Source: Minisyncoccota bacterium (GTDB taxonomy: Bacteria > Patescibacteriota > Minisyncoccia > Phycocordibacterales > PALSA-1337). From it: a stretch of DNA of 64,000 nt. A program made the translations under genes and the position numbers. The notes beneath the pieces are model-generated. The model searched no databases. It was not told where the DNA came from and saw only the letters and a program-made list of their open reading frames with translations. The stretch covers positions 10,467 through 74,466 of the forward strand of contig JBAZRG010000001.1 in assembly GCA_041663145.1 (NCBI GenBank). Direction: 5' to 3'. Of this stretch, positions 4,097 through 57,700 are shown piece after piece (the first letter of the stretch is position 1; every line of letters starts with the position of its first letter).

Positions 4097-4765
4097 ATGA
4101 ATCTCATAAAATCAACAGATTCGAATGAAGGAGCACCATTGCTCGCAAATAGGATCATAGATTCGCTTGTGGCAAGCAAAAAAGTTTTATGGCTAATAGC
4201 TGGCGGATCAAATATACCAATAGCGGTTTCGGTGATGAATATGATAAAGAAATCAGCGGTCAATATCGACTTTCAAAATCTGACGATTGCTCTTACAGAT
4301 GAACGTTATGGTCCAGTTGGTCATCCAGATTCCAATTGGCAACAACTTATCGATCATGGTTTTGATTTTAATGGAGTAAGATCCGTTCCCATTCTCAAGG
4401 GTCGTAGTCTCGAAGAAACGGCGATTGGATATGATAAGTACATAAGGTCAATTTTTGAAAGTGTCGAAGTTGTCATTGCTCAATTTGGTATTGGAGCTGA
4501 TGGTCACATAGCTGGTATATTACCTCATTCACCTGCAGTCGATTGTACTGACATCGTCACTGGTTATGTCACCGATAATTTCACCAGAATTACGCTTACA
4601 CCGATTGCTCTACGTAAAATAAATTATGCTTTTGTTTTCGCTTTTGGTGAATCGAAACTTGAAGCTATGAAAAACATTCGAGAGAACAAAATGACTCTTG
4701 CCGATGAGCCTGCCGGCATATTAAATACTTTACCTGAGGTTTACATTTTCAGTGGGTTGGAGTAG
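4097..4765 (+). CDS. pgl: 6-phosphogluconolactonase / glucosamine-6-phosphate isomerase family
   Basis: GADGHIAGILP motif (GxDGHxAS family signature); adjacent to gnd. Confidence 0.65.
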   Translation: MNLIKSTDSNEGAPLLANRIIDSLVASKKVLWLIAGGSNIPIAVSVMNMIKKSAVNIDFQNLTIALTDERYGPVGHPDSNWQQLIDHGFDFNGVRSVPILKGRSLEETAIGYDKYIRSIFESVEVVIAQFGIGADGHIAGILPHSPAVDCTDIVTGYVTDNFTRITLTPIALRKINYAFVFAFGESKLEAMKNIRENKMTLADEPAGILNTLPEVYIFSGLE

Positions 4766-4784
4766 ATATTCACATACATAGACC

Positions 4785-4957
4785 CCAACATAATGTTCCA
4801 GCTAGCTTGGTGAACATTGTCCCTCAGCTCCTCGCAAGGTCACCCACTCCAAATTGCAACCATATTTGAATAGACGTAACTATTCAAATATGGGCAATTT
4901 GTTCGGGGTTCAAATCGCATTGCTCGTCGCTGACGAACAATGTTCACCAAGCTAGTG
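4785..4957. repeat. intergenic palindromic repeat element, copy 1 (terminal inverted repeats plus covarying central hairpin)
   Basis: Terminal inverted repeats ...tagcttggtgaacattgt / acaatgttcaccaagcta. Conserved core gcaaggtcacccactccaaattgcaacc ... gggcaatttgttcggggttcaaatc. Central hairpin catatttgaatag-acgtaa-ctattcaaatatg. Confidence 0.8.
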
Positions 4958-5029
4958 AAAATATTGTGTGATTTCTCTGGCAAAAATACTATTTAGTATC
5001 AAAATATCTAATCAAATTTCTGTAAATAA

Positions 5030-5062
5030 AAAACCACTATCGTCTGTCACACGATAGTGGTC
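5030..5062 (-). terminator. intrinsic terminator downstream of the ABC exporter gene
   Basis: CCACTATCGT-loop-ACGATAGTGG preceded on the + strand by an A-run (T-run on minus). Confidence 0.5.
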
Positions 5063-5083
5063 TGCATCAATTATTTAAGAGTA

Positions 5084-6922
5084 TTACTCGATGCTCAGTC
5101 TAGCCTTGTCTTTTGTCAGAAGAGAAGAGTACTTACCATGCTTGGAAAGTAGTTCATCGTGTGTTCCGCTCTCGACCAATTCTCCATTGTCCAAGACAAG
5201 TATGTTATCGGCATTTTTTGCTCGTGAGACGTGTTGTGTCACGATGATCATTGTGGTGTCTTTTTGAGCGAAGATTTTATCCATCAATCGTTCCGAAGCT
5301 TCTGGATCAAGCTTCGCATCAGGCTCATCTAGGATGAATATCGGCGTACCGCGGTATTTAGCTCGTGCCAGAGCGAGTCTTTGCTCTTCGCCTCCAGAGA
5401 ATTCCCGTCCATCGAATTCTGTGCCGATTTGAGAATCGAATCCTTTGGGGTCACCGTCGACTATGGGAGTGAATTCGGCGAATGATGCAGATTCACGTAC
5501 CTTTTCCATGTCGATGCTTTCTTCTAGTCTTGAGGACGCAATCTCCGAGCCTATAGTGCGTTCCATGATGGCAAAATTTTGCAATAACGCACAAGCTGTT
5601 TTGCTCCAAACTGTAGGTGCAATGTTGTTCAAGTTCAAATCACCTATGTGAATACTTCCGCTTGTCGGATCATAGTGCCGGAGCAAGAGTCCGATTAACG
5701 ATGATTTACCGCTACCGTTTGTCCCGACAATTGCCACTTTGGATCTGGGCCGGATCGTGAAAGATACGTTTCTTAGTACCAACACGTCTTTGTCGGGATA
5801 TGAAAACGATACATTGTTGAAATATATCGTCGGTGGACCAGTGAATTCTGGATCAACAGGGTTTACTGTCGAGAGTAGAGGTTTCAAGGCGAAATATTCT
5901 TCCTCGATCATGACCATGCCTTTGGCACTTTGCCATTGAGTCGCAATCTGCAGAACTATGTCTCTGATCGATGATTGTAGTCGTCTGGACGAACCTATAA
6001 TGACTGTGAGTGCACCCAAGTCTCCGCCAATAGAGAGTGTTCCCCAAACGGAGTGAAGGAGTACGATACTCAAACCCGCCATAGCAAAAAGGTATGCACC
6101 TAGACTTATCTGTAAGTTTTGCCAGCGTGCTTCAAGTACCGATTTGAGGACATGATCTTGATTGTCCTTGATCTGTTTCGAGAGTGTGGGAAGTTGATTG
6201 AACATCAGTCCTTGCAAGAATGATGTGGTCCCAAAGAACGCCTGTTGTAACACACTGCGACGTTTGTGATGTGGAATTAGTTCAAGCGACAGTTTCCACA
6301 TTCGACTTACGGCGGCAAACTCAGCGAAGACCATGGGTATGGACATAGCCAAGATGATGCAGACATAAATAGGATGTGTAGTTAAAAGCGAAATCCCAAA
6401 CACTACTAATCCTATCACCGCACTTAATGATTCAATCATTTCGCCTGCAAATGAGATGCGTGTACCCCAACTTTCGGGTAATTCATCGATTTTCTTTTCT
6501 ATGTCGTCATAGGTCTTGCTCCTTTTGCGTGCAATATCTAGTGAAGCACGCAGGTCATTCATTTCTTGGTTATTAGCCAACCGAAGAACATGTCTTTGTC
6601 GTTGAACTATAAATGACCGGAATTTCTGCAAGACAATCTCGATGAACAATGCCACAATAAACATCAGGACGGGCAGGAAATATCCGCCGCCAACGAACTC
6701 TTTCAATGTGATCGGGCTCTGACGGGGATTTGTTAGCTGAAGTTGTATGGAACTAATGAGCTCGCCCATGAGCAATATCATGACGTAGCCGAGAAGTGTC
6801 TGAGCAACAATTAACCCTGCAATTGTGATGGTGTCCTTGCGGTTGTTTCGGAAACAGAACGCAAATGAGTATCTCGAAGCTTTTTGAACTGTCGAGATAG
6901 CATCTAACAGACGTTTTTTCAT
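5084..6922 (-). CDS. ABC transporter, fused permease/ATP-binding (ABCB-type exporter)
   Basis: N-terminal 6-TM domain; Walker A GTNGSGKSSL; signature LSGGEEQRLALARA; Walker B ILDEPDAKLD. Confidence 0.85.
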   Translation of the reverse strand: MKKRLLDAISTVQKASRYSFAFCFRNNRKDTITIAGLIVAQTLLGYVMILLMGELISSIQLQLTNPRQSPITLKEFVGGGYFLPVLMFIVALFIEIVLQKFRSFIVQRQRHVLRLANNQEMNDLRASLDIARKRSKTYDDIEKKIDELPESWGTRISFAGEMIESLSAVIGLVVFGISLLTTHPIYVCIILAMSIPMVFAEFAAVSRMWKLSLELIPHHKRRSVLQQAFFGTTSFLQGLMFNQLPTLSKQIKDNQDHVLKSVLEARWQNLQISLGAYLFAMAGLSIVLLHSVWGTLSIGGDLGALTVIIGSSRRLQSSIRDIVLQIATQWQSAKGMVMIEEEYFALKPLLSTVNPVDPEFTGPPTIYFNNVSFSYPDKDVLVLRNVSFTIRPRSKVAIVGTNGSGKSSLIGLLLRHYDPTSGSIHIGDLNLNNIAPTVWSKTACALLQNFAIMERTIGSEIASSRLEESIDMEKVRESASFAEFTPIVDGDPKGFDSQIGTEFDGREFSGGEEQRLALARAKYRGTPIFILDEPDAKLDPEASERLMDKIFAQKDTTMIIVTQHVSRAKNADNILVLDNGELVESGTHDELLSKHGKYSSLLTKDKARLSIE

Positions 6923-7045
6923 TAACTATCCTTTTTGTTTGTGATTTGCTGAAAACTTAATTTGTCAAAGAAGCCAAGTAGTATTATATCATGCGTATAG
7001 GCATATAGTCAACTTTAGCGGGTTCAATAGCTTGGAAACACCCCA

Positions 7046-7231
7046 TCAACATAATGTGGAATAGCTCGGTGAACATTGTCCCTCAGCTCCTCGCAAGGTC
7101 ATCACTCTCAAATTGAAGCCATGTTTCAGCAGATGGAACTACTGAAACATGGGCAATTTGTTCGGGGTTCAAATCGCATTGCTCGTCGCTGACGAACAAT
7201 GTTCACCAAGCTAGTGGGAACATTATGTTGA
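7046..7231. repeat. intergenic palindromic repeat element, copy 2
   Basis: Same terminal inverted repeats and core as copy 1. Central hairpin catgtttcagcag-atggaa-ctactgaaacatg, with compensatory changes relative to copy 1. Confidence 0.8.
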
Positions 7232-7274
7232 GGTATTTATGAGTAGTTACATCTGTACTTATCCACAGTATTCT

Positions 7275-7304
7275 TTGACAGGTGAACGGCTGTTCACCTA
7301 TACT
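7275..7304 (+). promoter_or_regulatory. promoter TTGACA-N18-TATACT with a perfect 18-bp palindrome (candidate LexA/SOS operator) as spacer
   Basis: ttgaca GGTGAACggctGTTCACC tatact. The GAAC-N4-GTTC core resembles the Cheo-type SOS box. Lies upstream of lexA. Confidence 0.5.
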
Positions 7305-7361: not shown

Positions 7362-7565
7362 ATGAGCAAGCAACAAGTCATCAGAACTATCAGATCCGAG
7401 ATCGATAGACTCAATCGAGAGATTGATCTTCGCATCATCAAAGGCGCTTCTTACAGGCGTGAGGCGCTCCGGCACAAATTCTTGATGGCTGAGCTTGCTC
7501 GGTTGGCACCAAAGAGGTCGTGGTTCGCAAGGTCCCTCAGTTTTGCATCGATGTTTCTATTCTGA
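7362..7565 (+). CDS. hypothetical small protein (67 aa) co-oriented upstream of lexA
   Basis: In-frame ATG downstream of the promoter at 7275. Charged helical N-terminus and hydrophobic C-terminus SWFARSLSFASMFLF. The ORF-track start at 7239 overlaps the promoter and is rejected. Confidence 0.3.
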   Translation: MSKQQVIRTIRSEIDRLNREIDLRIIKGASYRREALRHKFLMAELARLAPKRSWFARSLSFASMFLF

Positions 7566-7575
7566 TTTTAAGACA

Positions 7576-8139
7576 ATGCAAAATTACAAACAAAAAATAA
7601 TAAATTTCTATAAGAGTACAAAACGAATGCCTTCGTATGCGGAGATCATGACTCTTTTGGGTTTCAAATCTAAAAATGCCGTATACAAATTAGTCAATAA
7701 ATTAGTCGGAGAAGGAATACTAGAGAAGGATTCAACGGGTCGTCTCATTCCAAATAAGCTCATAGGCGAGGTGCCTCTTCTCGGGTTAGTTGAAGCTGGA
7801 TTTCCGAGTGCAGCTGAAGAAGAATTGGTAGATACGATGAATCTCGATGACTATCTCATCGAAAACAAAGAAGCCACATATCTTCTAGAAGTAAAAGGTG
7901 ATTCCATGATAGATGCAGGCATTCAAGAAGGCGATTTGGTCATAGCTGAACGACGTAACAATCCGAAAGATGGCGATATTGTCATTGCTGAGGTTGATGG
8001 CGGTTGGACTATGAAATATTTTCGTAAAAAAGGCACTACGATATTTTTGGAACCCGCTAACAGTGCATACAAACCTATATATCCAACGACAGATCTCAAG
8101 GTCGCTGCGATTGTCAAAGGAGTTGTGAGAAAATATTAA
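7576..8139 (+). CDS. lexA: LexA repressor (S24 peptidase)
   Basis: N-terminal wHTH (SYAEIMTLLGFKSKNAVYKLVNKL); cleavage site VEAGFP; catalytic GDSM serine and TMKYF lysine. Start taken at the internal ATG. Confidence 0.8.
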   Translation: MQNYKQKIINFYKSTKRMPSYAEIMTLLGFKSKNAVYKLVNKLVGEGILEKDSTGRLIPNKLIGEVPLLGLVEAGFPSAAEEELVDTMNLDDYLIENKEATYLLEVKGDSMIDAGIQEGDLVIAERRNNPKDGDIVIAEVDGGWTMKYFRKKGTTIFLEPANSAYKPIYPTTDLKVAAIVKGVVRKY

Positions 8140-8177: not shown

Positions 8178-9515
8178 ATGCAACCACTCACGATCCATTC
8201 ATTTCCACGCGCCATACTTCATGTCGATGGAGACGCTTTTTTCGCATCATGTGAAGTTGCTAAGGATCCGACTCTTCGTGGTAAGCCGGTAGTGACAGGT
8301 CTCGAGCGTGGTATAGCATCATCTATGACTTATGAAGCCAAGATGCGTGGCGTGACTCGAGCCATGAGTTTGCGAGATATTCGGAAAATCTGTCCGGACG
8401 TCATCATTTTGCCTTCAGATTATGAGACATATAGTTTGTATTCAAAACGGATGTACGAAATAGTTCGTCGATTTACTTCTGATATTGAAGAATATAGTAT
8501 CGATGAATGTTTTGCTGATCTGACCGGCATGCGTCGACCAAATAATATGTCCTATGAGGAGATGGCTATGCGAATCAAGCACGATCTAGATACTGAGCTT
8601 GGTATGACATTTTCTGTTGGTTTATCTGTCAACAAAGTGCTCTCCAAAATCGGTTCAAAATGGAAGAAACCATCTGGCCTCACTATAATTCCTGGTTACA
8701 ATATTCATCTATATCTTTCGAAAACTCCTGTAGAAAAGATTTGGGGTATTGGTCCAAATACATCTGCATATCTCAATAAATATGGCATCAAGACAGCTTT
8801 AGATTTTGCAATTAGAGATAAATATTGGGTCAGATCCAATCTATCAAAACCGTTTCAAGAGATTCATTCTGAATTGAATGGCAGTTTCGTATATCCACTT
8901 ACGCTTGGCGAAAAACATGACTATACATCTATAAGCAAAACAAAGACTTTTACTCCACCTTCTAGTGATGCGAAGTTTGTATTTGCTGAACTATCAAAGA
9001 ATATTGAAAATGCTTGCATCAAGCTACGCCGACATGATCTATTTGCAAAGAAATTTGCTTTTTTTATTAAGAATCAAGAATTCCGATATTCAGGTTTGGA
9101 AATCAATCTAAATGTAGGAGTTAGAACACCAGAACAAATACTATCCTTGGCTCGTGAAAGATTTGGGGAGGTTTTCAATAAAGGATTTTTGTATAGATCT
9201 ACAGGAGTTATTTTGATGAACCTTATTCATGATGATGTTTCAACTCTCGATCTCTTTGGTGATTCTGCATTATTAGCAAAGACAAATAAGATCTACGAAG
9301 CAGTCGATCGGATCGATCGAAAATATGGCAAGCATACGATATTTTTAGGTTCATCATTTCGTGCTATCAAAAAACCAATAGCCGAGAGTATGTCTTCGTC
9401 TAAGACGGATTCAAGCAATAGTCGTAATTGTATAACCGAGCGTCGCAACCATCTTCTCAAAGGTGAAACAGCAAGAAAACGTCTTGGAATTCCATTTTTA
9501 GGGATAACAATGTGA
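8178..9515 (+). CDS. dinB: Y-family DNA polymerase (DinB/UmuC-like)
   Basis: ILHVDGDAFFASCE palm motif at the N-terminus; lies immediately downstream of lexA. Confidence 0.8.
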   Translation: MQPLTIHSFPRAILHVDGDAFFASCEVAKDPTLRGKPVVTGLERGIASSMTYEAKMRGVTRAMSLRDIRKICPDVIILPSDYETYSLYSKRMYEIVRRFTSDIEEYSIDECFADLTGMRRPNNMSYEEMAMRIKHDLDTELGMTFSVGLSVNKVLSKIGSKWKKPSGLTIIPGYNIHLYLSKTPVEKIWGIGPNTSAYLNKYGIKTALDFAIRDKYWVRSNLSKPFQEIHSELNGSFVYPLTLGEKHDYTSISKTKTFTPPSSDAKFVFAELSKNIENACIKLRRHDLFAKKFAFFIKNQEFRYSGLEINLNVGVRTPEQILSLARERFGEVFNKGFLYRSTGVILMNLIHDDVSTLDLFGDSALLAKTNKIYEAVDRIDRKYGKHTIFLGSSFRAIKKPIAESMSSSKTDSSNSRNCITERRNHLLKGETARKRLGIPFLGITM

Positions 9516-18299: not shown

Positions 18300-18332
18300 A
18301 AGCCCATCTCGAAAGGGATGGGCTTTTGTTAT
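18300..18332 (+). terminator. Rho-independent terminator after cspA
   Basis: AAGCCCATC-loop-GATGGGCTTTTGTT. Confidence 0.6.
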
Positions 18333-18424
18333 GCCACACATATTTGACGTGGTACATATTGACTGAAAGAGATGTTTGTGTGTATAATAAACCAGTAAAT
18401 TTGATTTTTAATCATACAAAACTG

Positions 18425-18928
18425 ATGAAAAAAATATCAAACAAAATAATCATATCTATTGCAATAACGGCTGTCATAACTGGTGTGTTTTCATTGATCG
18501 GACCAGATAAGGCCTTGGCTGGATACATGCCTACGACCTATGGATATTACGGAGATTATTCTTACGACTACAACTACGGTTACAGTTATGATTATGGCTA
18601 CGGCTATAGTGACGAATACAGACACGGTGGTTACACCTACGATGTACCCTTGTTTCAGGGTGCTTCATATACTTTGTCTTCTTATAATCATAATTACGAC
18701 TACAATTACAATTACGATTATGGACGAGACTATGATTACGATCGCAATCCTAGACGTGACGATAGTGACCGCGATCGCAATAGAGGATCATCTTATTACG
18801 ACGGTTCCTGGTCTTATCCCAATTCTTCATACTATTCCTCATACTCATACCCATCTTACTATTCACCATCTGTTTATACAGTAAGCAATCCATACGTTTC
18901 TTACGGATCTTATTACTATAGTTATTGA
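18425..18928 (+). CDS. secreted tyrosine/aspartate/glycine-rich low-complexity protein
   Basis: Signal/TM segment MKKISNKIIISIAITAVITGVFSLIG, then YGYYGDYSYDYNYGYSYDYGYGY... repeats. Start taken at the internal ATG. Confidence 0.6.
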   Translation: MKKISNKIIISIAITAVITGVFSLIGPDKALAGYMPTTYGYYGDYSYDYNYGYSYDYGYGYSDEYRHGGYTYDVPLFQGASYTLSSYNHNYDYNYNYDYGRDYDYDRNPRRDDSDRDRNRGSSYYDGSWSYPNSSYYSSYSYPSYYSPSVYTVSNPYVSYGSYYYSY

Positions 18929-18940
18929 GGTATTTGGTGT

Positions 18941-19096
18941 GAGAGCTCGGTGAACATTGTTCCGAAACGACTCGCAATGTGATTTGAACCCCGAACAAAT
19001 TGCCCATATATGAGTAGCTCCGTCTACTCATATATGGTTGCAATTTGGAGTGGGTGACCTTGCGAGTCGTTTCGGAACAATGTTCACCGAGCTCTG
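18941..19096. repeat. intergenic palindromic repeat element, copy 3 (inverted orientation)
   Basis: Terminal inverted repeats gagctcggtgaacattgttccgaaac / gtttcggaacaatgttcaccgagctc. Reverse-complement core identical to the other copies. Central hairpin catatatgagtag-ctccgt-ctactcatatatg. Confidence 0.8.
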
Positions 19097-19202
19097 AAAT
19101 ATTATCTTATATATAATTCTCGGAATAAAAAAGAACAATGTGTGTGGTTACTTTATTTACATACGCTTCATGAATCCTTAATTTTCTGCTACTATTCCTG
19201 TC

Positions 19203-21452
19203 ATGAAAGGACAAGGACAGGATTCCATTCCTGATAAGTTCAATAAGCCTTACGATTTCGTAGCGACTGAAGAACGCATATATTCTCTGTGGGAGAAAAG
19301 CGGTTTTTTTGATCCCGATAAATTACCTGATAGGAATAAGAAGGGTCAGCCATTTTCGATGGTTTTACCGCCACCAAATGTCACTGGTAACTTGCACATG
19401 GGGTCGGCGCTAATGTTGGCTATCGAAGATATCATGGTCCGTTACGCACGCATGACTGGCCGAAAGACCATGTGGATTCCCGGTACGGATCATGCCGCTA
19501 TCGCGACTCAGTCAGTCATTGAGAAGAAGATCCAAAAAGAAGAAGGGAAATCGAGGTACGATCTCGGTCGTGAAGAATTGTTGCGTCGCATTGCCGAACA
19601 TGTGACCGTGACTCATGACACTATCACACGACAGATGCGCCGGATGGGTGTGTCCATCGATTGGTCGCGTGAGGCATTTACTCTCGATGACAAGAGAAAT
19701 CTGGCGGTTCGTACGGCCTTCAATAAGATGTACAATGACGGTCTCATATACCGTGGCTATCGAGTGGTCAATTGGGATCCGAAGGGTCAGACGACTATCT
19801 CTGATGATGAGATAGAATACGAAACTCGTCCAGCCAAACTCTATACATTCAAATATTCCAAGGATATACCGATCACCATATCCACGACTCGGCCTGAGAC
19901 AAAGCTGGGAGATACTGCTATTGCCGTTCACCCCGAAGATGAGAGATATAAAAAATACATTGGTCAAGAATTCAAAACAATTTTTGCCGGTGAAGAGATC
20001 AATCTAAAAGTTATTGCCGATATTTCTGTAGATCCAGCATTCGGTACCGGTGCTTTGGGGGTAACTCCAGCTCATTCTATGATCGACTGGGAAATAGCCG
20101 AGAGACATAGTTTACCGATGAAGCAGGTTATCAATGAATATGCCAAGATGATGGTCGGCTCGGAAACTATTGTCGGCAAAAAGACGACCGAAGCTCGTCT
20201 GGCAGTAGTCGCTTGGCTTACAAAGGAGGGATTGTTGGAAAAAGAAGAAGATATCGAACATAACGTCAGCTTGGCCCAGAGAACTGGTGGAGTCGTAGAA
20301 CCATTGCCAAAATTGCAATGGTTCGTGGCTGTCAATAAAGAATTTGAACAAAATGGAAAGAAAACTACTCTAAAAAAGTTGATGATCGAAGCAGTGACTT
20401 CTGGAGCGATCAAGATCATTCCTGATCATTTCGAAAAGGTCTATTTCAATTGGATAAGCAATCTCCGCGACTGGTGTATATCGAGACAGATCTGGTATGG
20501 ACATCGTCTGCCGGTCTGGTACAGATCCGCAACAGGCGACAGGGTTGGTCAAAAAGAAGTTTTCGTTGGTATGGAATCTCCAAAAGGTGATGGTTGGAAA
20601 CAGGATGAGGATACTTTGGATACATGGTTTTCTTCAGGTCTCTGGACTTTTTCGACTTTGGGCTGGCCTGACAAAAAAGAATTTGATTTACATCGCGATT
20701 TTCATCCGACTACCATACTCGAAACTGGCTCGGACATACTCTTTTTCTGGGTAGCGAGAATGATATTGATGAGCACGTATCTTCTGGGTGAAGTTCCATT
20801 CAAGACTGTATATTTACACGGACTCGTACGTGATGCCAAAGGCCGAAAGATCAGTAAATCTCTGGGTAATAACGTCGATCCACTAGATATGATAGCCAAG
20901 TACGGTGCTGACGCGGTCAGAATGTCACTCATTGTCGGAGTCGGTCCGGGCAGTGACAGTAAGATCGGGGAAGATAAGATCAAAGCTTATAAACTCTTTG
21001 CCAACAAGCTCTGGAATATTACACGTTTCGTCATGTCATCCTGTGAAGGGGAAAAGTTGGATCCAGATTTTACGGAGTTTTCGGATCACGATCAAAAATT
21101 GATGTCTGATTTCGATGCATTATGCAAAGATCTGACTACCGACATGGACAACTACAGATATTATCTGGCTGCCGAAAAACTCTATCATTATGCCTGGCAT
21201 GAATTTGCAGACATAATACTCGAAGATAGTAAGAAATTATTTGCTGGTGGTGTAAGTGCGACAAATGTCGGATCTCAGACTGATTCTGAATCTGAAAAGA
21301 TCAATAAATCCCGCAAGCAGCTTCTTTTGAGGATTTTATCTTCAATTATCAAATTATTGCACCCATTCATGCCGTTTTTGACCGAAGAAATCTGGCAGGA
21401 GATGAATACAGGCAATTCAATCTTAATGGTCGAATCTTGGCCAAAATCGTAA
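19203..21452 (+). CDS. valS: valine--tRNA ligase (compact form)
   Basis: PPPNVTGNLHMGSA (HIGH region) and KISKSLGN (KMSKS); 749 aa, apparently lacking a long C-terminal coiled coil. Confidence 0.8.
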   Translation: MKGQGQDSIPDKFNKPYDFVATEERIYSLWEKSGFFDPDKLPDRNKKGQPFSMVLPPPNVTGNLHMGSALMLAIEDIMVRYARMTGRKTMWIPGTDHAAIATQSVIEKKIQKEEGKSRYDLGREELLRRIAEHVTVTHDTITRQMRRMGVSIDWSREAFTLDDKRNLAVRTAFNKMYNDGLIYRGYRVVNWDPKGQTTISDDEIEYETRPAKLYTFKYSKDIPITISTTRPETKLGDTAIAVHPEDERYKKYIGQEFKTIFAGEEINLKVIADISVDPAFGTGALGVTPAHSMIDWEIAERHSLPMKQVINEYAKMMVGSETIVGKKTTEARLAVVAWLTKEGLLEKEEDIEHNVSLAQRTGGVVEPLPKLQWFVAVNKEFEQNGKKTTLKKLMIEAVTSGAIKIIPDHFEKVYFNWISNLRDWCISRQIWYGHRLPVWYRSATGDRVGQKEVFVGMESPKGDGWKQDEDTLDTWFSSGLWTFSTLGWPDKKEFDLHRDFHPTTILETGSDILFFWVARMILMSTYLLGEVPFKTVYLHGLVRDAKGRKISKSLGNNVDPLDMIAKYGADAVRMSLIVGVGPGSDSKIGEDKIKAYKLFANKLWNITRFVMSSCEGEKLDPDFTEFSDHDQKLMSDFDALCKDLTTDMDNYRYYLAAEKLYHYAWHEFADIILEDSKKLFAGGVSATNVGSQTDSESEKINKSRKQLLLRILSSIIKLLHPFMPFLTEEIWQEMNTGNSILMVESWPKS

Positions 21453-21467
21453 GTTTGTTATCTTAAT

Positions 21468-21563
21468 GTAACCCATGGCAACATCATGTCCCTCCGTAAC
21501 CTGCGGGCGCTTCGCTGGTCACAATCCTCGGTTACTACGGGACATAATGTAGCCATGGGTTAC
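21468..21563. other. ~96-bp nested imperfect palindrome (structured element; possible ncRNA, terminator or MITE-like element)
   Basis: gtaacccatggc...agccatgggttac outer stem; atgtccc/gggacat and gtaacc/ggttac inner stems; GC-rich 28-nt loop. Lies between valS and the next gene. Confidence 0.4.
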
Positions 21564-21651
21564 ATTGGTTGCTATCCACAGTCTTTTTAGCTTTTGTAGT
21601 CAATAAGCGATATTATATAGGTGTTATTATCCTACTTTTTCCAATTAATAC

Positions 21652-24508: not shown

Positions 24509-24539
24509 GATTTGTCAAGGGGGAGTTATACACAGGCTA
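24509..24539 (-). promoter_or_regulatory. conserved 30-nt upstream motif, copy A (contains a TTGACA -35 on the minus strand)
   Basis: atttgtcaagggggagttatacacaggcta. On the minus strand it reads TTGACA-N16-TATACT upstream of the 23443..24372 gene. Confidence 0.45.
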
Positions 24540-26238: not shown

Positions 26239-26333
26239 AATATGACTATTTTGTTGGTGCTGATCAAATCGCTTTATTCAATGAATAAATTAGCACGACT
26301 TGATTCTAAACACAGAATGACTTGTTTCCGGTA

Positions 26334-26363
26334 TTTGTCAAGAGTGAGTTATACACAGGTCTA
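26334..26363 (-). promoter_or_regulatory. conserved 30-nt upstream motif, copy B
   Basis: atttgtcaagagtgagttatacacaggtcta; 28 of 30 positions shared with copy A. Lies upstream of the 25663..26238 gene. Confidence 0.45.
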
Positions 26364-33497: not shown

Positions 33498-35123
33498 ATG
33501 CTTGATATTTACCAATCAGCAGTTATAATTACAGCTTTCTTTTTTACAGGATTTGGAGGATTTGCTATCTGGAAAAATCAGAAAGATGTTCAAGCGCGAC
33601 GATTCGCATTGCTGTCATTTGCTTTTGCTGCTTGGAGTTATTCATGGTTTTTCTTATTAAAGACTACATCCAATGCAGACTCTGCACTTATCTTAGCGAG
33701 GATTCTTAATCTGGGTGCAACTTTTATTCCAGTGTTATTTTTGCATTGGGTATTTGTTGCAACTGAATATGAGAAAAAAAATAAGATGTTCATGTATTTA
33801 TGCTATTTAATTACTTTATTTTTTGCAGCTTTTAGCTTTACAGATCTATATGTTACTGGTGTTAGAGCAATATCAATATTTGCATATTGGCCAATAGCTG
33901 GTCCATTTTATATTTATTTTATATTTATAGGTTATATTGGTTTTATTTTGACTGGGTTAATAATGTTGATTAAAAAGTTTTTTAGCACATCTGGCATTAT
34001 CCATTATCGTACCGGTTACTTGTTTGTTGGATCAATGCTTGGATTCATAGGCGGATCAGTCAATTTTCCTATGATGTTTGGAATTGTTATTCCACAACCA
34101 TACGATCTTATTGGAATATTTATGCTTATGATGAGTCCGATCATTTTTAGTTACGCAGCTTTACAGTATCAGTTGTTCGATATTCGTAATGTAGCGGTTC
34201 AATTATTTGCTGGTGCACTTAACATTGTGTTTATAATAAATTTGCTACTAGCAAAAACATTTTCTCAAATATTTATTAATGCTTTGTTACTTGTCTTCAC
34301 ATTATCATTTACTGTTTTATTGTTACGAACATTAAAAAAGGAGACTTTACAACGCGAACGCATCGAACTACTCGCCGCTGATCTGGAGAAAGCTAATGTG
34401 CGACTGATCGATTTGGATCGGCAGAAGTCGGAGTTCATATCGTTCGCCACACATCAGTTGCGCGCACCGCTCACGGCCATGAAGGGGTATGCGTCATTGT
34501 TGTTGGAAGGGGATATGGGACCTCTGCCGGAGAGTGCCAAACAGGGCGTTTCGAGAATATTCGATTCGACAAACACGCTGGTCTCGATCGTCAATGATTA
34601 TCTGAATATAAGCCGAATAGAACTAGGTGCGATGAAATACGCTTTTGAGACGATCGATCTAAGGATGCTGGTCGAAGACACGATCGCTGAGCTCAAGCCA
34701 AATCTGGAGAAGACCAAATTGAAGTTTACTTTTGATCATAAAGACGACGGTACTGATTATCGGATGACGGCGGATCGGGACAAATTGAAGCAGGTTCTTG
34801 CAAACGTCATAGACAATTCTATAAAATATACTCCGCAGGGAAGTGTGACCGTGACACTCACTCTGGATCGTTCCAAACATAGATTTGTCTTGAAAGTCAA
34901 AGATACCGGAGTGGGTATTGCTTCTGATGTCATGCCTCGTCTATTCCAAAAATTCAGCAGAGCTGAGAATGCGAATAAGACGAATATCAGGGGTAGTGGT
35001 TTGGGCTTGTATGTCGCCAAACAGATGATTGAAGCTCATCACGGCACTATTCGAGCCGAATCAGAGGGTGAAGGTAAAGGATCAACATTCATCGTGGAAT
35101 TTGAACCGTTGGCTAAAGCTTGA
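33498..35123 (+). CDS. membrane sensor histidine kinase (multi-TM sensing domain)
   Basis: About 7 TM helices; H-box SFATHQLRAPLTAMKGY; G-boxes DTGVGIA and GSGLGLYVAKQM. Confidence 0.75.
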   Translation: MLDIYQSAVIITAFFFTGFGGFAIWKNQKDVQARRFALLSFAFAAWSYSWFFLLKTTSNADSALILARILNLGATFIPVLFLHWVFVATEYEKKNKMFMYLCYLITLFFAAFSFTDLYVTGVRAISIFAYWPIAGPFYIYFIFIGYIGFILTGLIMLIKKFFSTSGIIHYRTGYLFVGSMLGFIGGSVNFPMMFGIVIPQPYDLIGIFMLMMSPIIFSYAALQYQLFDIRNVAVQLFAGALNIVFIINLLLAKTFSQIFINALLLVFTLSFTVLLLRTLKKETLQRERIELLAADLEKANVRLIDLDRQKSEFISFATHQLRAPLTAMKGYASLLLEGDMGPLPESAKQGVSRIFDSTNTLVSIVNDYLNISRIELGAMKYAFETIDLRMLVEDTIAELKPNLEKTKLKFTFDHKDDGTDYRMTADRDKLKQVLANVIDNSIKYTPQGSVTVTLTLDRSKHRFVLKVKDTGVGIASDVMPRLFQKFSRAENANKTNIRGSGLGLYVAKQMIEAHHGTIRAESEGEGKGSTFIVEFEPLAKA

Positions 35124-35146
35124 TTATCGGAGACAATGACCTCCTC

Positions 35147-35184
35147 CCCAGGCTCCGCTACGCTGCGCCTGGGGTTTCCTTTTG
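35147..35184 (+). terminator. Rho-independent terminator after histidine kinase (may coincide with the IS right-end hairpin)
   Basis: CCCCAGGC-loop-GCCTGGGG followed by TTTCCTTTTG. Confidence 0.5.
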
Positions 35185-35198
35185 TGTCATGAGGCTTC

Positions 35199-35630
35199 TC
35201 ATTGGAACAGCCGAGCCTTTTGTGGTTTGTCCTTCTTTCCCTGCCATTCTATATACCGTTTTACCTGTACCTCATTCAAACCGACGGTGGAGGAGAAATA
35301 CCCGACGCTCCAGATGCCGTCGGATTCAAGGTATATCTCCCGAATGAACCTGAATCTTTTTCGGAGAGCTCTACTCGAATTAGCTTTAAGTTTTCCGACA
35401 GCATCTGAGACGTTGGTATTCGGAGCTATCTCAATCTGAATATGCACATGGTCTTCATCAGTGTTCATGACTTCAATCCAGAGCGTCGGATATTTCTTTA
35501 CGGTGCTGTAGAGTGACTTCTTGAGTTCTAGGAGTACATATGGCTTGAGTATCTTGTATCTGTATTTGGTGCCCCAAACTATATGGTACTGATGTTGGTA
35601 TGTGCTGTGATTAAGCTTACGAAGCCTCAT
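35199..35630 (-). CDS. tnpA: IS200/IS605 family transposase TnpA (Y1 HUH)
   Basis: YHIVWGTKYRYKIL N-terminus, HVHIQIEIAPN (HUH) and catalytic Tyr region; 143 aa. Confidence 0.8.
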   Translation of the reverse strand: MRLRKLNHSTYQHQYHIVWGTKYRYKILKPYVLLELKKSLYSTVKKYPTLWIEVMNTDEDHVHIQIEIAPNTNVSDAVGKLKANSSRALRKRFRFIREIYLESDGIWSVGYFSSTVGLNEVQVKRYIEWQGKKDKPQKARLFQ

Positions 35631-35736
35631 GGAAACAGCCTACCACATCTATGTTACGTAAGTGACTCCGACAAACACATCCCCGCCCTTCCATGGTGGT
35701 TGCACGGGGTTTGTCCGGGCGGGGTTTATTTTTATG

Positions 35737-35771
35737 TAAAAAAAGCGCGTCTGAAGGCGACGCGCTTTTTG
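35737..35771 (-). terminator. intrinsic terminator at the IS200 left end (blocks read-through into tnpA)
   Basis: AGCGCGTC-loop-GACGCGCT with flanking A- and T-runs. Confidence 0.5.
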
Positions 35772-48161: not shown

Positions 48162-49193
48162 ATGAAAAAATTACGCGTAGCAATCAATGGTTTCGGTAGG
48201 ATCGGCAGGGCATTTTTGAAAGTAGCTAGAGAAAGACAAGAGATCGAGATCGTGGCTGTCAATGATCTGGGTGACATTAAAAATTTCGCATACCTGCTCA
48301 AATACGATTCCGCCTACGGTGTGAGCCCATTTGACGTCTCCGTAAATGAAAAAAATAATACTTTGGTCATAGATGGTCAAGAAGTTCAGTATCTCTCCGA
48401 AAAAGAGCCAGCCAATCTTCCATGGAAAAAGCTCGATATCGATGTGGTCGTCGAATGTACGGGAAGATTCACCTCATCTGACAAAGCAAAAGTTCATCTG
48501 GATGCCGGTGCAAAGAGGGTAGTGGTATCTGCCCCTATCAAAGACGAAGAAGATTCTTCCATAAAAGGCGAAACAGTTCTTCTCTCCATGAATGAAGACA
48601 AGCTCGAAAATTGCAAAATATCTTCCAACGCTTCCTGCACCACCAATGCCGGCAGTCCGCTCATCGCAATTCTCGATGAAACTATCGGTGTCGAGAAAGC
48701 TCTCTTGAATACGGTGCATGGTTATACTGCCAGTCAATCTCTAGTCGATGGTCCAAGCAAAAAAGATCTACGCGAAGGTCGCGCCGCCGCTCAAAACCTA
48801 GTTCCATCCTCTACTGGCGCGGCGATTGCCGTTACAAAAGTCATGCCCAAGCTCAAGGGTCTGTTCGATGGTATTTCTATCCGCGTACCAGTGCTTACTG
48901 GCTCTATCGTCGACGTCACTTTCATTTCCAAAAGAGAAACTTCTGTCGAAGAGGTCAATAAGATCCTCAAAAAAGCGGCAGAGGAAGACCGCTGGAGGAA
49001 TATCTTTACCGTAACCGAAGAACAGCTTGTCTCAAGCGATATTGTCGGCAACAGGCACGCTTCCATCGCCGATTTGGCATTCACACGCGTGGTTGGAGGG
49101 AATCTGGTAAAAGTGCTGGCGTGGTATGACAATGAGATGGGGTATACGTATACGTTGGTCGAGCATGTGATAAAGGCGGGGAGGCTTATTTAA
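48162..49193 (+). CDS. gap: glyceraldehyde-3-phosphate dehydrogenase
   Basis: INGFGRIGR and the active-site SNASCTTN motif. Confidence 0.9.
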   Translation: MKKLRVAINGFGRIGRAFLKVARERQEIEIVAVNDLGDIKNFAYLLKYDSAYGVSPFDVSVNEKNNTLVIDGQEVQYLSEKEPANLPWKKLDIDVVVECTGRFTSSDKAKVHLDAGAKRVVVSAPIKDEEDSSIKGETVLLSMNEDKLENCKISSNASCTTNAGSPLIAILDETIGVEKALLNTVHGYTASQSLVDGPSKKDLREGRAAAQNLVPSSTGAAIAVTKVMPKLKGLFDGISIRVPVLTGSIVDVTFISKRETSVEEVNKILKKAAEEDRWRNIFTVTEEQLVSSDIVGNRHASIADLAFTRVVGGNLVKVLAWYDNEMGYTYTLVEHVIKAGRLI

Positions 49194-49207
49194 TAAATAA
49201 TTTTATG
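49165..49207 (+). repeat. direct repeat A (~45 bp) spanning the gap 3' end and the next gene's initiation region
   Basis: atgtgataaaggcggggaggcttatttaataaataattttATG. Repeated at 49588-49631 with 2 substitutions and small indels. Confidence 0.6.
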
Positions 49208-49588
49208 AATAGAGAAAGAGTATTAAATTGGATAGGAGGACTATGGTTTTTTATAAACTTGCCGATTATTCCATTTGCAGGCTCCGTGGTGAATGCATTT
49301 GCTATGGAGTATTTCTCAGATTACCGAATAGCATTTGCAACCATTACATTCATTGTATTTTTGATAGTCTTGTCCTTAAGTAAGATTTGGTTAGGTAAGC
49401 TGATAAAGGCTCCTGTAATTTTATCTGCGATACCATTTCTATACGCTACTTTACAACTCGTTGCGGTTCAGGATTATTTAGTTCAGCATCGCCCAGTACT
49501 TTTTGGAATAATAGGTATTGTTCTTGTTGTTGTGATATGCACAGTTGTTATAAAAGCAATGCGAGGAGAACTTAATAAGAAGCTCTGA
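49205..49588 (+). CDS. hypothetical membrane protein (127 aa)
   Basis: Four hydrophobic segments; bracketed by the 45-bp direct repeats. Confidence 0.45.
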   Translation: MNRERVLNWIGGLWFFINLPIIPFAGSVVNAFAMEYFSDYRIAFATITFIVFLIVLSLSKIWLGKLIKAPVILSAIPFLYATLQLVAVQDYLVQHRPVLFGIIGIVLVVVICTVVIKAMRGELNKKL

Positions 49589-49631
49589 TGTGATAAAGGC
49601 GGGGAGATTAATTTAATAATTTATAAATATG
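49588..49631 (+). repeat. direct repeat B (copy of the 49165 repeat)
   Basis: atgtgataaaggcggggagattaatttaataatttataaatATG. Confidence 0.6.
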
Positions 49632-51988: not shown

Positions 51989-52030
51989 GTGACCTTGCGA
52001 GTTGTGTCGGAACAATGTTCACCGAGCTCA
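51989..52030. repeat. solo end fragment of the palindromic repeat element (partial copy 5)
   Basis: gtgaccttgcgagttgtgtcggaacaatgttcaccgagctca matches the right ~42 nt of copy 3, but no core or hairpin follows. Confidence 0.65.
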
Positions 52031-54728: not shown

Positions 54729-57700
54729 ATGGCTACTTCTAAAAAATCTTACATTATTTCTTTATTCATATGTTCGATTTTAGTTTCCGTCTTCGCTTAC
54801 ACAATATCGACAAATGCGGTAAATGCTCAAACCTTTGAATATGGATTCAAGTGTTATAACACTTCCACGGGACAGTATGGAACCTTAGAAGGTCCGCCAG
54901 GATTTCAGACTTGTACAGGACCATATTATGGTGGTTCTACGGGTTCTGGTGATGATGAATCAGTTAGTATTCTAGGAGACGGATCATGTCCATCTATTAA
55001 ACTTCATCCCATTCCTGGGATATGGTTCGATATATTAAGTGCGCATTATAATTTAGGTTGTGTAAACGGAACTCCGCGTCAATTTTATGGTACCGTTGGA
55101 GATATTATAGAACTTCCTAACGGTAAGCAAATAACTGTGTCCGAAAAAGGCTTCGATTTTAAATGTGCGATCGGATTAAAGAATGATAACGGTTGTCCTA
55201 CTAGATTGTTAAGACCTGGTTATAAAGTAACTATTTCAACAGTCGGCTCTGGAATTGTCTCGGGTTGTGATGGTATCTGTACGGTCTTACAGGTTAAAAA
55301 AGGAAGTGTTATCACTTTGAAAGCCGAACCCAAGCCTGGCAGTAAGTTCAAGCAGTGGAGCGGAGGATGTTCTGGTACTATAGATGTTTGCGAGCGTACG
55401 ATAAATGCTGATACGAATATTTCAGCCGTTTTTGCGTCTACTAGTGATATTGTTCTTGCAAATGTAAATCCCACAGCTTCGGCACCGGGGAAAATAATTA
55501 CGGTCAAGGGTACCGGTTTTAATGCCAAGGGTAACTCTGTTCGCGTTACGAATGCTAAGAATTCGGCCAATTTTGTAGTTATACCAAATGTATCCTCCAC
55601 TAATGATACTTTGACCGTGGAATTGCCTACATCTTTATCAAAAATGAACAGTGGTGATTTTGTCGTAGATGTAAAAAATACTGATAGTGATTGGAGCAAT
55701 CAACTCTCACTAAAACTCACCATCACAAAAATCATTGCAGTTGTACTTATGAACTCAGGTAAGATCGGTACTCCCGGCTCAAATCCAACTCTGGAATATT
55801 TGCAAAGCATTTCCGAAGGTTCGACTATCATCCCATATCGTTTCCAAGCTCCAGCCAAGATCACTGCGACTGTTCGCAAGGTTGTCGATCAGGAATTGCG
55901 GGCTAAAAATAAAGTCATATTGATCGGACATTCTGTCGGAGCGTTTTTGATCTACAATATGCGTGGTGAATATGATAAAAACGGAGGAAATGTCCAATTC
56001 ATGTACTTTGATCCGCCAGTCAAATTTATAGGAGGAAAAGCCTGTTTCAATGTCTTTGGTGGGCTTTTCGCGGCGGCTCATAAGGCGATATGTGATGGAG
56101 TTGCAGATGATCCAAATACTAAAAACTGGACGTATGGACAGGCTATTGGTTTTGCTTTCAAGACTTTCAAATTCCATAATCCTTTTGACTATCCAAATGT
56201 CAGACAAGCGGCGCCAAACGGTAAGACAAACGCTGAAAATCTGGCGGATCTTACGGAAGATATCGAAAATCGATTGATTGCGGATTGTACAGATAATTGT
56301 TCTTTTGAGGTAACTCCTCTCTCCAGTGTTTTAAAAACTCCACCAAAGAATATCAAGGTGATCAATGAAGCAAGTGCGACCATATCAACTATTCGACCAG
56401 GAGATACAGTCATCATATCCGGCACAGGTTTTAATTCCGGCGGAAATCATGTCACTATAGAAAATAAAGCCGATCCATTCATCTATTATGATCAATACGA
56501 TCTCATTCCAGATGCAAACGGTCATCTCAATTTCACACTTCCCGAAGGTCCTGATATACAAGATGAAGATAATCCGGTTAGTACGGTTCCGGGTGCATAT
56601 ACTCTGAAAGTAAGCGCACTCGATAGTGACTGGAGTTCTAGTATTACAGTGAATATATCGACATCAGGTAAACTCAAGGCTGAGATGTCGAAGTCCGGTA
56701 AGGTCAAATTGACATGGGATGATACAGCCAGCAATGAGACGGGATTCCAGATCGAACGCGCTCTCGACAAAGATGGAAAGAGTTTCAAACTGATCGCTAC
56801 AAATCCGGCAAACAATACGACATATGTAGATGATCTCAATTCAACTGCTCTCACATCAACTATTGAGACATATCGAGTCAGGGCAGTATTGCCTAGCAGA
56901 AAATATTCCGAGTATACGAATACTGCATCTGTTTCGAATTGTCTCAGTGTGGCAGGTGAGGGTCAGATAAAAGTTGTGTTTATGAGAGGATCGAGCTGGA
57001 ATCCGAAAATCCAAGATGCCATGAATCAGGTGAACTATATTATAGACAATGGTTTTGGTGAAATCGAACCATTCAAAAAATATTTCGATAGTTTTTCTTT
57101 CTATCTAGATTTGAAGACGGTCAAAGAATCATCTTACAGCAAAGTCACAACAGCTTCAAAAAAGAAAGCCTTTTCTCCTTCAGCATTGGTATCGATGAAG
57201 TCGGCCAGCAGTTGCGGTGATGGGGACCAATACACTCTATATGTCAATTCTTCTGAATATATTGGAGGCACCAGTCAATTTAGTTCCAATTTCAGTCTTC
57301 TCAATTTGGCAGTCTCCAACAGTCCTGCTGTGGCACTCCACCAATTTGCTCGTGCTTTGGCGGGATTGCAGGATGAATATGTTTCTTCGGAGACAGTTGG
57401 ATCATTGAAGAATTGCAGTATGTATCCTAAGAAAGATTATAAGGGTGATGACAATATTATCTACGGCAGTATCAACACTCCAGGGTGTGCAAAATCGGAT
57501 TATTGGCGACCAAGTTATGATAGTCTGATGAATGAAAATGAGCTCAATTCCGATCCACGAATGAATGTCATTTCGTGTGGTTATATGATCGCTGCACTCC
57601 GAGGTGAACCTACTACGAAGTCAAATGCTCAAAAATATTGGCCGGAATGTTATAGCATGGCAGGAACAGGCGACATCATCATGGATGGTATGCTAAATCC

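Follow-up and report, generated by a model that had tools for sequence, protein, structure and literature searches.

A new family of 152-bp intergenic hairpin repeats in a Candidatus Paceibacterota genome, most likely MITE-like elements with compensated variation

What are the long palindromes that recur between the genes of this Patescibacteria contig, and what keeps their arms paired while their sequences diverge? In the 64,000 nucleotides analyzed here (the window), a preliminary description had reported a multi-copy intergenic palindromic family made of four full copies and one solo end. This family is real: a search for the terminal motif GAGCTYGGTGAAYATTGT tolerating up to three mismatches returned 9 matches in the 64-kb window against 0.23 expected, every one of them at an element end. 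All four full copies are exactly 152 bp long and align without a gap, with a mean column identity of 89%, and neither an nhmmer profile nor a covariance model built from the four copies revealed further copies in the window. The positions first proposed point to the same five places, their boundaries being slightly generous or off relative to the 152-bp units. These units, the reference segments of copy 4 and the insertion sequence discussed below are as follows.

4803-4954, + strand: copy 1, 152-bp core unit of subfamily A, central hairpin at 4860-4893 (approximately 4782-4972 with a weaker outer inverted repeat); 38 bp past the stop of a 6-phosphogluconolactonase-like gene (4097-4765), with convergent genes on both sides
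7062-7213, + strand: copy 2, 152-bp core unit of subfamily A, central hairpin at 7119-7152 (approximately 7040-7234 with the outer inverted repeat); between the divergent promoters of an ABC-transporter gene (5084-6922, - strand) and of the lexA operon
18943-19094, - strand (inverted): copy 3, 152 bp, subfamily B, central stem at 19004-19037; valS lies 108 bp downstream and a hypothetical gene on the other side
35120-35740: apparently intact IS200-type insertion sequence, gene at 35199-35630 on the - strand (Y1_Tnp, 1.4e-27; transpos_IS200, 104.7 bits)
51989-52029, - strand: truncated copy, 41 nt equivalent to element positions 1-41 (terminal inverted repeat, variable helix arm and TCGCAAGGTCAC); 8 bp past the stop of a SIMPL-family gene, with uppP beginning 25 bp further on
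61765-61916, + strand: copy 4, 152 bp, subfamily B, terminal inverted repeat variant GGTGAATATTGT, central hairpin at 61822-61855; 6 bp past the stop of a transketolase C-terminal subunit gene, with uvrB next, from 62327
61765-61782, + strand: left 18-bp terminal inverted repeat (TIR) of reference copy 4, GAGCTCGGTGAATATTGT, partner at 61899-61916
61800-61881, + strand: asymmetric core of reference copy 4, GGTCACCCACTCCAAATTGCAACC ... GGGCAATTTGTTCGGGGTTCAAATCACA, around the hypervariable 14-bp central hairpin

The four copies and the truncated end make up about 1% of the 64-kb window. All five are intergenic, lie in the orientations + + - - + in window order, and are flanked by functionally unrelated genes (pgl/ABC transporter, ABC/lexA, hypothetical/valS, SIMPL/uppP and tkt/uvrB). 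Annotation of approximately 60 ORFs in the window disclosed neither a function common to the neighbors of these five loci nor a rule relating the orientation of the element to that of the genes around it. No open frame is common to all copies, the six frames all being interrupted in most of them, and no homologues of a six-frame pseudo-protein of the element were found. We note that a lone gene (5084-6922), encoding an ABC transporter with an ATPase domain, is enclosed by copies 1 and 2, two members of one subfamily that point the same way at a distance of 2259 bp. Such a layout (4803-7213) is reminiscent of a composite transposon or of a local duplication, and the GC content of the interval is unremarkable. 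The ORF next upstream of copy 3 (18326-18928) has no family match and contains a 36-nt internal direct repeat (18555-18722) that would encode Tyr/Asp/Asn-rich peptide repeats.

Read inward from its ends, the element begins with an 18-bp TIR and a variable helix segment of 11 bp, followed by a conserved TCGCAA/TTGCGA clamp, the asymmetric core and a central stem of 13-14 bp capped by a 6-nt loop. The TIR is present at all nine ends and is the best-conserved paired segment of the family, with 3 of its 18 columns variable and each of these either compensated or subfamily-specific; it is presumed to be the transposase-binding end. The left half of the asymmetric core reads GGTCACCCACTCC-AAATTGCA-AC and its right half GGCAATTT-GTTCGGGGTTCAAATC(A/G)CA. 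The outer stem spans 35 bp; its arms are 95-97% complementary in copies 3 and 4, and the 35-bp outer stem and 14-bp central stem of copy 3 are both perfect. Copies 1 and 2 carry in addition a weaker outer inverted repeat (CAACATAATGT.../...ACATTATGTTG, in the form ACCCCA..CAACATAATGT at the left and ACATTATGTTGAGG at the right) that brings their total length to about 190-195 bp, and the truncated copy presents a fifth variant of the variable arm, TCCGACACAAC. Each copy folds, on either strand, into a single rod-like hairpin, with RNA folding energies of -60 to -99 kcal/mol against approximately -33 in shuffles (z of -6 to -17) and DNA folding energies of -30 to -64 kcal/mol (z of -5 to -17). 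The TIR contains the motif AACAT(N0-2)TGTYCC, of which the window holds 8 matches against 0.26 expected, in hairpin elements only, and copies 1 and 2 possess a second, outer occurrence of it. Judged from its sequence, such a repetition of the motif within the arms would be what repeated transposase-binding sites typically show. Another imperfect hairpin, 102 nt long (21465-21566) and with 37-nt arms that are 86% complementary, lies 13 bp past the valS stop, and its left arm (AACATCATGTCCC) fits this motif, which is otherwise confined to the arms of the element; it may represent a second, shorter element with a common protein-binding motif, or simply the terminator of valS.

The arms of the element have not merely remained similar to one another; they have changed together. 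In the alignment of the four copies, 93.3% of the cells of a 63-pair structure are standard pairs, and 14 of the 63 pairs (20 cells) change on both sides yet stay paired. The covariation that had been proposed is significant by a shuffle and register test on these four copies: none of 500 shuffles reached 14 double-sided changes, and sliding the 3' partners by 1-3 columns left 0-3 such pairs. Compensated variation is found in the central hairpin, where it had been described, and it is not confined to that hairpin, since columns 19-29 of the outer stem change in concert with columns 124-134. The further statement that every substitution is compensated was too strong. Copies 1 and 2 carry 5-6 uncompensated mismatches (at least five in each) in the inner part of the outer stem, with one C.A and five pyrimidine-pyrimidine mismatches in common between columns 19 and 31, and copy 2 shows C.A oppositions at columns 6/147 and 69/80, the latter within the central stem itself, as well as two broken core pairs. 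A single A.C mismatch is found in copy 4. The four independent transition-type mismatches all read as G.T or G.U on the strand complementary to the orientation of copy 1 (4/4; p = 0.125), and this strand gives the more stable fold in every copy; from four events, the one-strand bias is only suggestive.

Variation is distributed very unevenly along the element. Between copies 1, 3 and 4, 23 of the 48 columns of the variable helices differ, against 1 of the 50 columns of the asymmetric core (Fisher p = 4e-8). The core is thus near-identical, as had been stated, in these three copies and not in copy 2, the most degenerate member of the family, whose left core is changed at 8 positions and which has 4 unpaired cells. 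A different partition emerges when copies 1 and 2 are compared: 101 of the 102 columns outside positions 41-90 are identical, whereas 17 of the 50 columns inside differ (p = 1e-8), and the center of copy 2, including its loop ATGGAA, resembles that of copy 4. Near-identity outside columns 41-90 combined with divergence inside points to exchange between family members; the copies are mosaics, shaped by exchange or conversion among the members of a necessarily larger family.

Such a pattern had been taken to mean selection for structure. For a palindrome made of DNA this does not follow, as correction of one arm templated by the other yields the same pattern without selection. Quasipalindrome template switching, in which one arm is corrected intramolecularly from the other, is an established mutational mechanism. 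The compensation seen here may thus stem from selection on a folded single strand or from arm-to-arm templated correction, two origins that are inseparable in these data. What the coexistence of an invariant core with hypervariable helices does show is that a constraint beyond that of being a palindrome acts on the element, and it is this constraint that keeps alive the idea of recognition of a folded strand, to which we return below.

Searches for relatives of the element agree with the earlier remark that it matched nothing recognizable, as neither Rfam nor any of the collections searched yielded a match. Rfam 15 gave no match at gathering thresholds over the whole window, and copy 3 searched at E<=10 gave sub-threshold miRNA and snoRNA noise only. 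A 22-mer from the invariant core had no exact occurrence in 185,579 species genomes, JGI metagenomes and IMG/VR, collections from which the source genome itself is evidently absent; plasmids and phages searched by blastn contained no match to the element, and literature searches with its sequence strings retrieved nothing relevant. A paired-TIR pattern detected one Saccharibacteria hairpin with only GGTGAATATTGTTT in common with the element and a score of 40 bits against the covariance model. This 154-nt hairpin (5288-5441 of CAZHHB010000004.1, an uncultured Saccharibacteria MAG) lies directly after a gene, has a 31-bp perfect outer stem and carries GGTGAATATTGTTT about as far from its base as in copy 4; its interior is unrelated and it occurs once. 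Shortening the pattern by one base per end returned 36 metagenome loci and one viral locus, consisting of iteron-like arrays and unrelated palindromes, and the core of the element was present in none of the 37. As these palindromic matches are compatible with chance, no superfamily is claimed.

Closer relatives gave no better indication of the origin of the family. The valS product of the window (19203-21452) is 100% identical to MFA6314774.1, a protein of a Candidatus Paceibacterota MAG. In the three nearest relatives, represented by approximately 62 kb of distinct sequence, no copy was present. The spacer upstream of valS is 45-60 bp long and free of the element in the three closest available relatives, versus 275 bp here; these loci do not qualify as orthologous empty sites, since their upstream genes differ and the closest other ValRS proteins (Taylorbacteria-like) are only 73-74% identical. 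Independent evidence of repetition comes from a Logan contig (SRR18595301_338270), a separate assembly of the same valS gene that stops 29 bp inside the TIR of copy 3. A break of this kind is the usual signature of a genomic repeat, indicating that short-read assembly of this organism collapses or breaks at the repeat.

Three other identities for the element or its parts were considered and discarded. A guide or target role of the variable helix arms found no meaningful match in the window and its flanks at up to two mismatches. A T-box leader, suggested by the location of copy 3 ahead of valS, is contradicted by the lack of an Rfam match, by the other copies not being upstream of aminoacyl-tRNA synthetase or amino-acid genes, and by the valS leaders of 45-60 bp in the relatives. 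As to a derivation from tRNA, ARAGORN found none, and GGGGTTCAAATC resembles the 5' half and loop of a T-arm without the complementary 3' half.

Comparison with known small repeats places the element among MITE-like families without assigning it to any of them. An architecture of the MITE, Correia or ERIC type, as first suggested, is borne out by the TIRs, the small size, the lack of coding capacity and the intergenic dispersal. REPINs, for example those of Pseudomonas fluorescens SBW25, share with the element an intergenic dispersal, two inverted ends, a variable pairing interior, single-end remnants and the capacity to fold as single-stranded DNA or mRNA (PMC3116915); in the description by Bertels and Rainey, their inverted ends are conserved, the hairpin-forming spacers between them less so, compensatory changes are "common" and singlets are remnants (PMC3116915). 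The REPIN-type inverted doublet with a variable, hairpin-forming and compensated spacer is present in the element. REPINs are nonetheless shorter (approximately 90-110 bp) and made of GC-rich REP hairpins, whereas the element is 152 bp long with a continuous outer stem of 35 bp and an invariant asymmetric core; and REPINs are linked to a RAYT gene that has these REPs on either side, whereas the only Y1 gene in this window encodes an IS200 TnpA with unrelated ends. Correia elements (CREE/NEMIS, Neisseria), RUP, Nezha and SMAG resemble the element in their size of about 100-160 bp, their TIRs, their non-coding nature and their intergenic location in both orientations, and Correia-type MITEs also often lie directly downstream of genes and form long hairpins in transcripts. 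The TA duplication, IHF site and outward promoters of Correia elements were not found here, however; the sequences are not similar, the element resides in a CPR bacterium, and its helices are hypervariable but compensated. ERIC/IRU sequences of enterobacteria are likewise intergenic imperfect palindromes, of about 127 bp, and Wilson and Sharp reportedly read the variation among ERIC copies as preserving secondary structure (2006). ERICs occupy conserved positions across species and are often transcribed, while the sequence of our element is unrelated and no copy was present in the other genomes searched.

Two further systems involve the recognition of hairpins. The attC sites of integrons, which are recognized as folded single strands, are imperfect palindromes that reach about 140 bp; their ends are conserved, their paired center varies, and they contain asymmetric unpaired bases. 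The ends of the element (GGTGAAC ... GTTCACC) do not fit the attC consensus RYYYAAC ... GTTRRRY, the window contains no cassette array, no integrase was found among the scanned ORFs, and the copies lie 2-43 kb apart beside housekeeping genes; an attC identity was therefore rejected. PATEs derived from IS200/IS605 are small, non-autonomous and hairpin-bearing, as is the element, and an IS200 TnpA is encoded in the same window. PATEs, however, carry the two subterminal hairpins, left and right, of the parent insertion sequence and have no TIRs, and the hairpins of the IS200 copy in the window differ from, and show no similarity to, the element. Those hairpins, CCCCAGGC..GCCTGGGG (35146-35174) and CCCCGCCC..GGGCGGGG (35681-35724), are GC-rich and unrelated to the 152-bp element, such that a link between the element and this IS200 copy was rejected on sequence. 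The IS200 transposase is a 143-residue Y1 HUH protein with an HVH motif that scores 21 bits against the NCBIfam RAYT model (cut-off 80); no other transposase is encoded in the window, nor was a RAYT flanked by repeats of the element found there.

Taken together, the fixed size, inverted ends, non-coding nature, occurrence in both orientations, truncated remnant, subfamilies and mosaics, assembly break and absence from relatives argue for a miniature non-autonomous mobile element. The repeats most likely constitute a new family, a MITE in the broad sense with REPIN-resembling evolution, in a Candidatus Paceibacterota (CPR/Patescibacteria) host. MITE features present are a length below about 500 bp, conserved TIRs and dispersed non-coding copies in unrelated contexts and both orientations. 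That the element is a non-autonomous mobile repeat, whatever its mechanism, we consider probable; that it is specifically of the TIR, cut-and-paste type is a narrower proposition that we favor slightly over its negation. A transposase encoded elsewhere in the genome would bind the 18-bp TIRs (core GGTGAAYATTGT, including AACAT-TGTYCC) and move or copy the 152-bp unit into intergenic DNA. The whole unit being an imperfect palindrome, either strand could form a hairpin whenever it is single-stranded, be it in replication, in transposition or as part of a read-through transcript; the arms would then be kept paired by selection on the folded form or by templated arm correction, giving rise to compensated substitutions, and the constant asymmetric core would probably serve as a second recognition site. 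A TIR-binding, DDE-like transposase encoded outside the window is the enzyme we would favor, in light of the long continuous TIR, the repeated AACAT(N0-2)TGTYCC motif, the TGA/TGA flanks of copy 3 and the lack of a replication-strand bias, none of which is decisive. Copy 3 is bordered by TGA (18940-18942) and TGA (19095-19097), and copy 4 by TGA(T)...(A)TGA, that is to say TGA one base off at both ends, or alternatively AT/AT; no target-site duplication was seen for copies 1 and 2, and none is consistent across the four copies. The 64-kb window contains neither a cognate transposase nor a full-length insertion sequence with the ends of the element. The family did not turn up in the other genomes and metagenomes searched, which offer no record of its spread between lineages. 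Against a plain cut-and-paste MITE, finally, stands the near-invariant asymmetric core beside hypervariable helices, which such an element does not predict and which suggests an additional constraint.

Alternative explanations differ from this mobile-element reading mainly in what they make of the folded form. Were the hairpin moved by an HUH Y1 transposase of the IS200/RAYT type, as a true analogue of REPINs and PATEs, its folded form would be the substrate and selection for pairing would be directly explained. A Y1 transposase gene does lie in the window (35199-35630, - strand; Pfam Y1_Tnp, E = 1.4e-27), the valS locus of one relative also starts with a Y1_Tnp-like gene, REPINs display the same evolutionary pattern (PMC3116915), and the four independent transition-type mismatches are all G.T on one strand, which is always the better folder. 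The last point amounts to p = 0.125 only, however, and the protein of the window is an ordinary IS200 TnpA (104.7 bits against a transpos_IS200 cut-off of 55, versus only 21 against the RAYT cut-off of 80) whose gene is flanked by hairpins (35146-35174 and 35681-35724) that have nothing in common with the element; the ends of Y1 elements are asymmetric and lack long TIRs, and the occurrence of both orientations despite a GC skew that is positive over the whole window leaves no replication-strand bias (n = 5). We regard movement by a Y1 enzyme as possible but unlikely. The helices could otherwise have been kept by selection on an RNA fold, the repeats being a structured RNA family, either a small RNA with its own promoter or a copied cis-acting 3'-UTR or intergenic module (terminator, RNase III site or mRNA stabilizer). 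The strong covariation would fit, as would the invariant unpaired or asymmetric core with varying helices, a classic RNA pattern; copies 1 and 4 begin 38 and 6 bp past the terminal genes of two pentose-phosphate operons and are oriented like them, and in every copy the central hairpin followed by GCAATTTGTT is predicted to be weakly terminator-like. Yet no promoter is predicted inside any copy and Rfam offers no match. Copy 2 fills the gap between divergent, sigma-70-like promoter sites (7012-6983, - strand, and 7275-7304, + strand) and would therefore belong to neither transcript, copy 3 is oppositely oriented relative to its neighbors, the read-through RNA of copies 1 and 4 is the strand with C.A and not G.U mismatches, at least five pyrimidine-pyrimidine mismatches are tolerated in copies 1 and 2, and related genomes show no conservation. 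The small structured RNA that the preliminary description had offered as an alternative thus finds no contextual support, given the placement of copy 2, the lack of an internal promoter, the inconsistent orientations and the wrong-strand G.U pairs of copies 1 and 4, and we hold this explanation to be quite unlikely.

Two other readings give the leading part to a host protein. Dispersed double-stranded sites for a LexA-like or nucleoid-associated protein reading GGTGAAC or AACAT-TGTYCC, with the palindromic body being incidental, would account for the fact that the GGTGAAC of the TIR is an exact half-site of the palindrome in the lexA promoter, 68 bp from copy 2, and that GGTGAAC occurs 17 times against 5.2 expected. 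Most of this excess, however, is due to the ends of the element themselves, the second half-site of the TIR is spaced by N3 rather than N4, copies 1, 2 and 4 have it in degenerate form, the likeness was spotted post hoc, and the 152-bp unit, its conserved core and its compensated helices are left unexplained; we consider this account highly improbable. The element could also be the substrate of a dedicated Patescibacteria protein that recognizes a single strand of DNA or RNA in its folded form, by way of the recognition module GGTCACCCACTCC / TTCGGGGTTCAAATCACA, a possibility kept alive by the invariant core that we nevertheless judge improbable. If it were true, the paired hypervariable helices would be free "spacers" or actively diversified specificity segments, and the element would belong to a new hairpin-recognizing system, analogous to attC-IntI or REPIN-RAYT and unrelated to both.

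Several features of the same intergenic regions and of the rest of the window deserve mention in their own right. The promoter of lexA contains a perfect palindrome, GGTGAAC-GGCT-GTTCACC (7281-7298), located between the -35 and -10 of the strong promoter-like site at 7275-7304 and corresponding to GAAC-N4-GTTC, a Gram-positive-type LexA box. The genes that follow it, lexA (7495-8139; TIGR00498, 128 bits) and a Y-family polymerase gene (IMS; 8178-9515), are likely to form an autoregulated SOS operon. The TIR core of the element (GGTGAAC-ATT-GTTC, with N3 spacing) opens with the very half-site GGTGAAC, and copy 2 ends 68 bp upstream of the palindrome; this likeness may be a coincidence. In the 61933-62232 region, which lies between copy 4 and uvrB, approximately 250 nt are bracketed by a promoter-like site (61933-61960) on one side and, on the other, a strong intrinsic terminator (62208-62223, followed by a T-run); the only ORF there is 59 codons long (61990-62169). 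Its sequence makes this region a candidate small RNA or small protein gene; Rfam searched with it at E<=1 returned noise only. Other repeats in the window include diverged tandem units of 30 and 48 nt (ACCCCGCTTGCCGCCACACCAAGAGTCACT among them) at 58227-58476, toward the 3' end of its largest ORF (54729-58661; 1310 aa), which probably encode a repetitive C-terminal region; a 37-nt intergenic direct repeat module (ATGTGATAAAGGCGGGGAGG...) at 49165-49201 and 49588-49624, at the ends of two consecutive genes that follow gap, which from its sequence looks like stop codons with a ribosome-binding site; and a 27-nt intergenic repeat (ATTTGTCAAGGGGGAGTTATACACAGG) whose two copies (24510-24536 and 26333-26359), 1.8 kb apart, flank two minus-strand genes.

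CPR bacteria, or Patescibacteria, have very small and streamlined genomes. No description of MITE-like repeats in these bacteria was found in the literature searched. The devotion of about 1% of the window to hairpin repeats would mean that selfish or co-opted repeats proliferate even in streamlined CPR genomes. The element is notable mainly for its CPR host and for the unusually clean compensated variation of its helices, and alone it opens no new class of biology. Repeats of this kind break short-read assemblies, and they would provide a marker for strain typing and a handle on transposition or single-stranded DNA processing in uncultured symbionts. The juxtaposition of an invariant core with compensated hypervariable helices, moreover, makes the family a clean natural test case for discriminating structural selection from the templated correction of palindromes.
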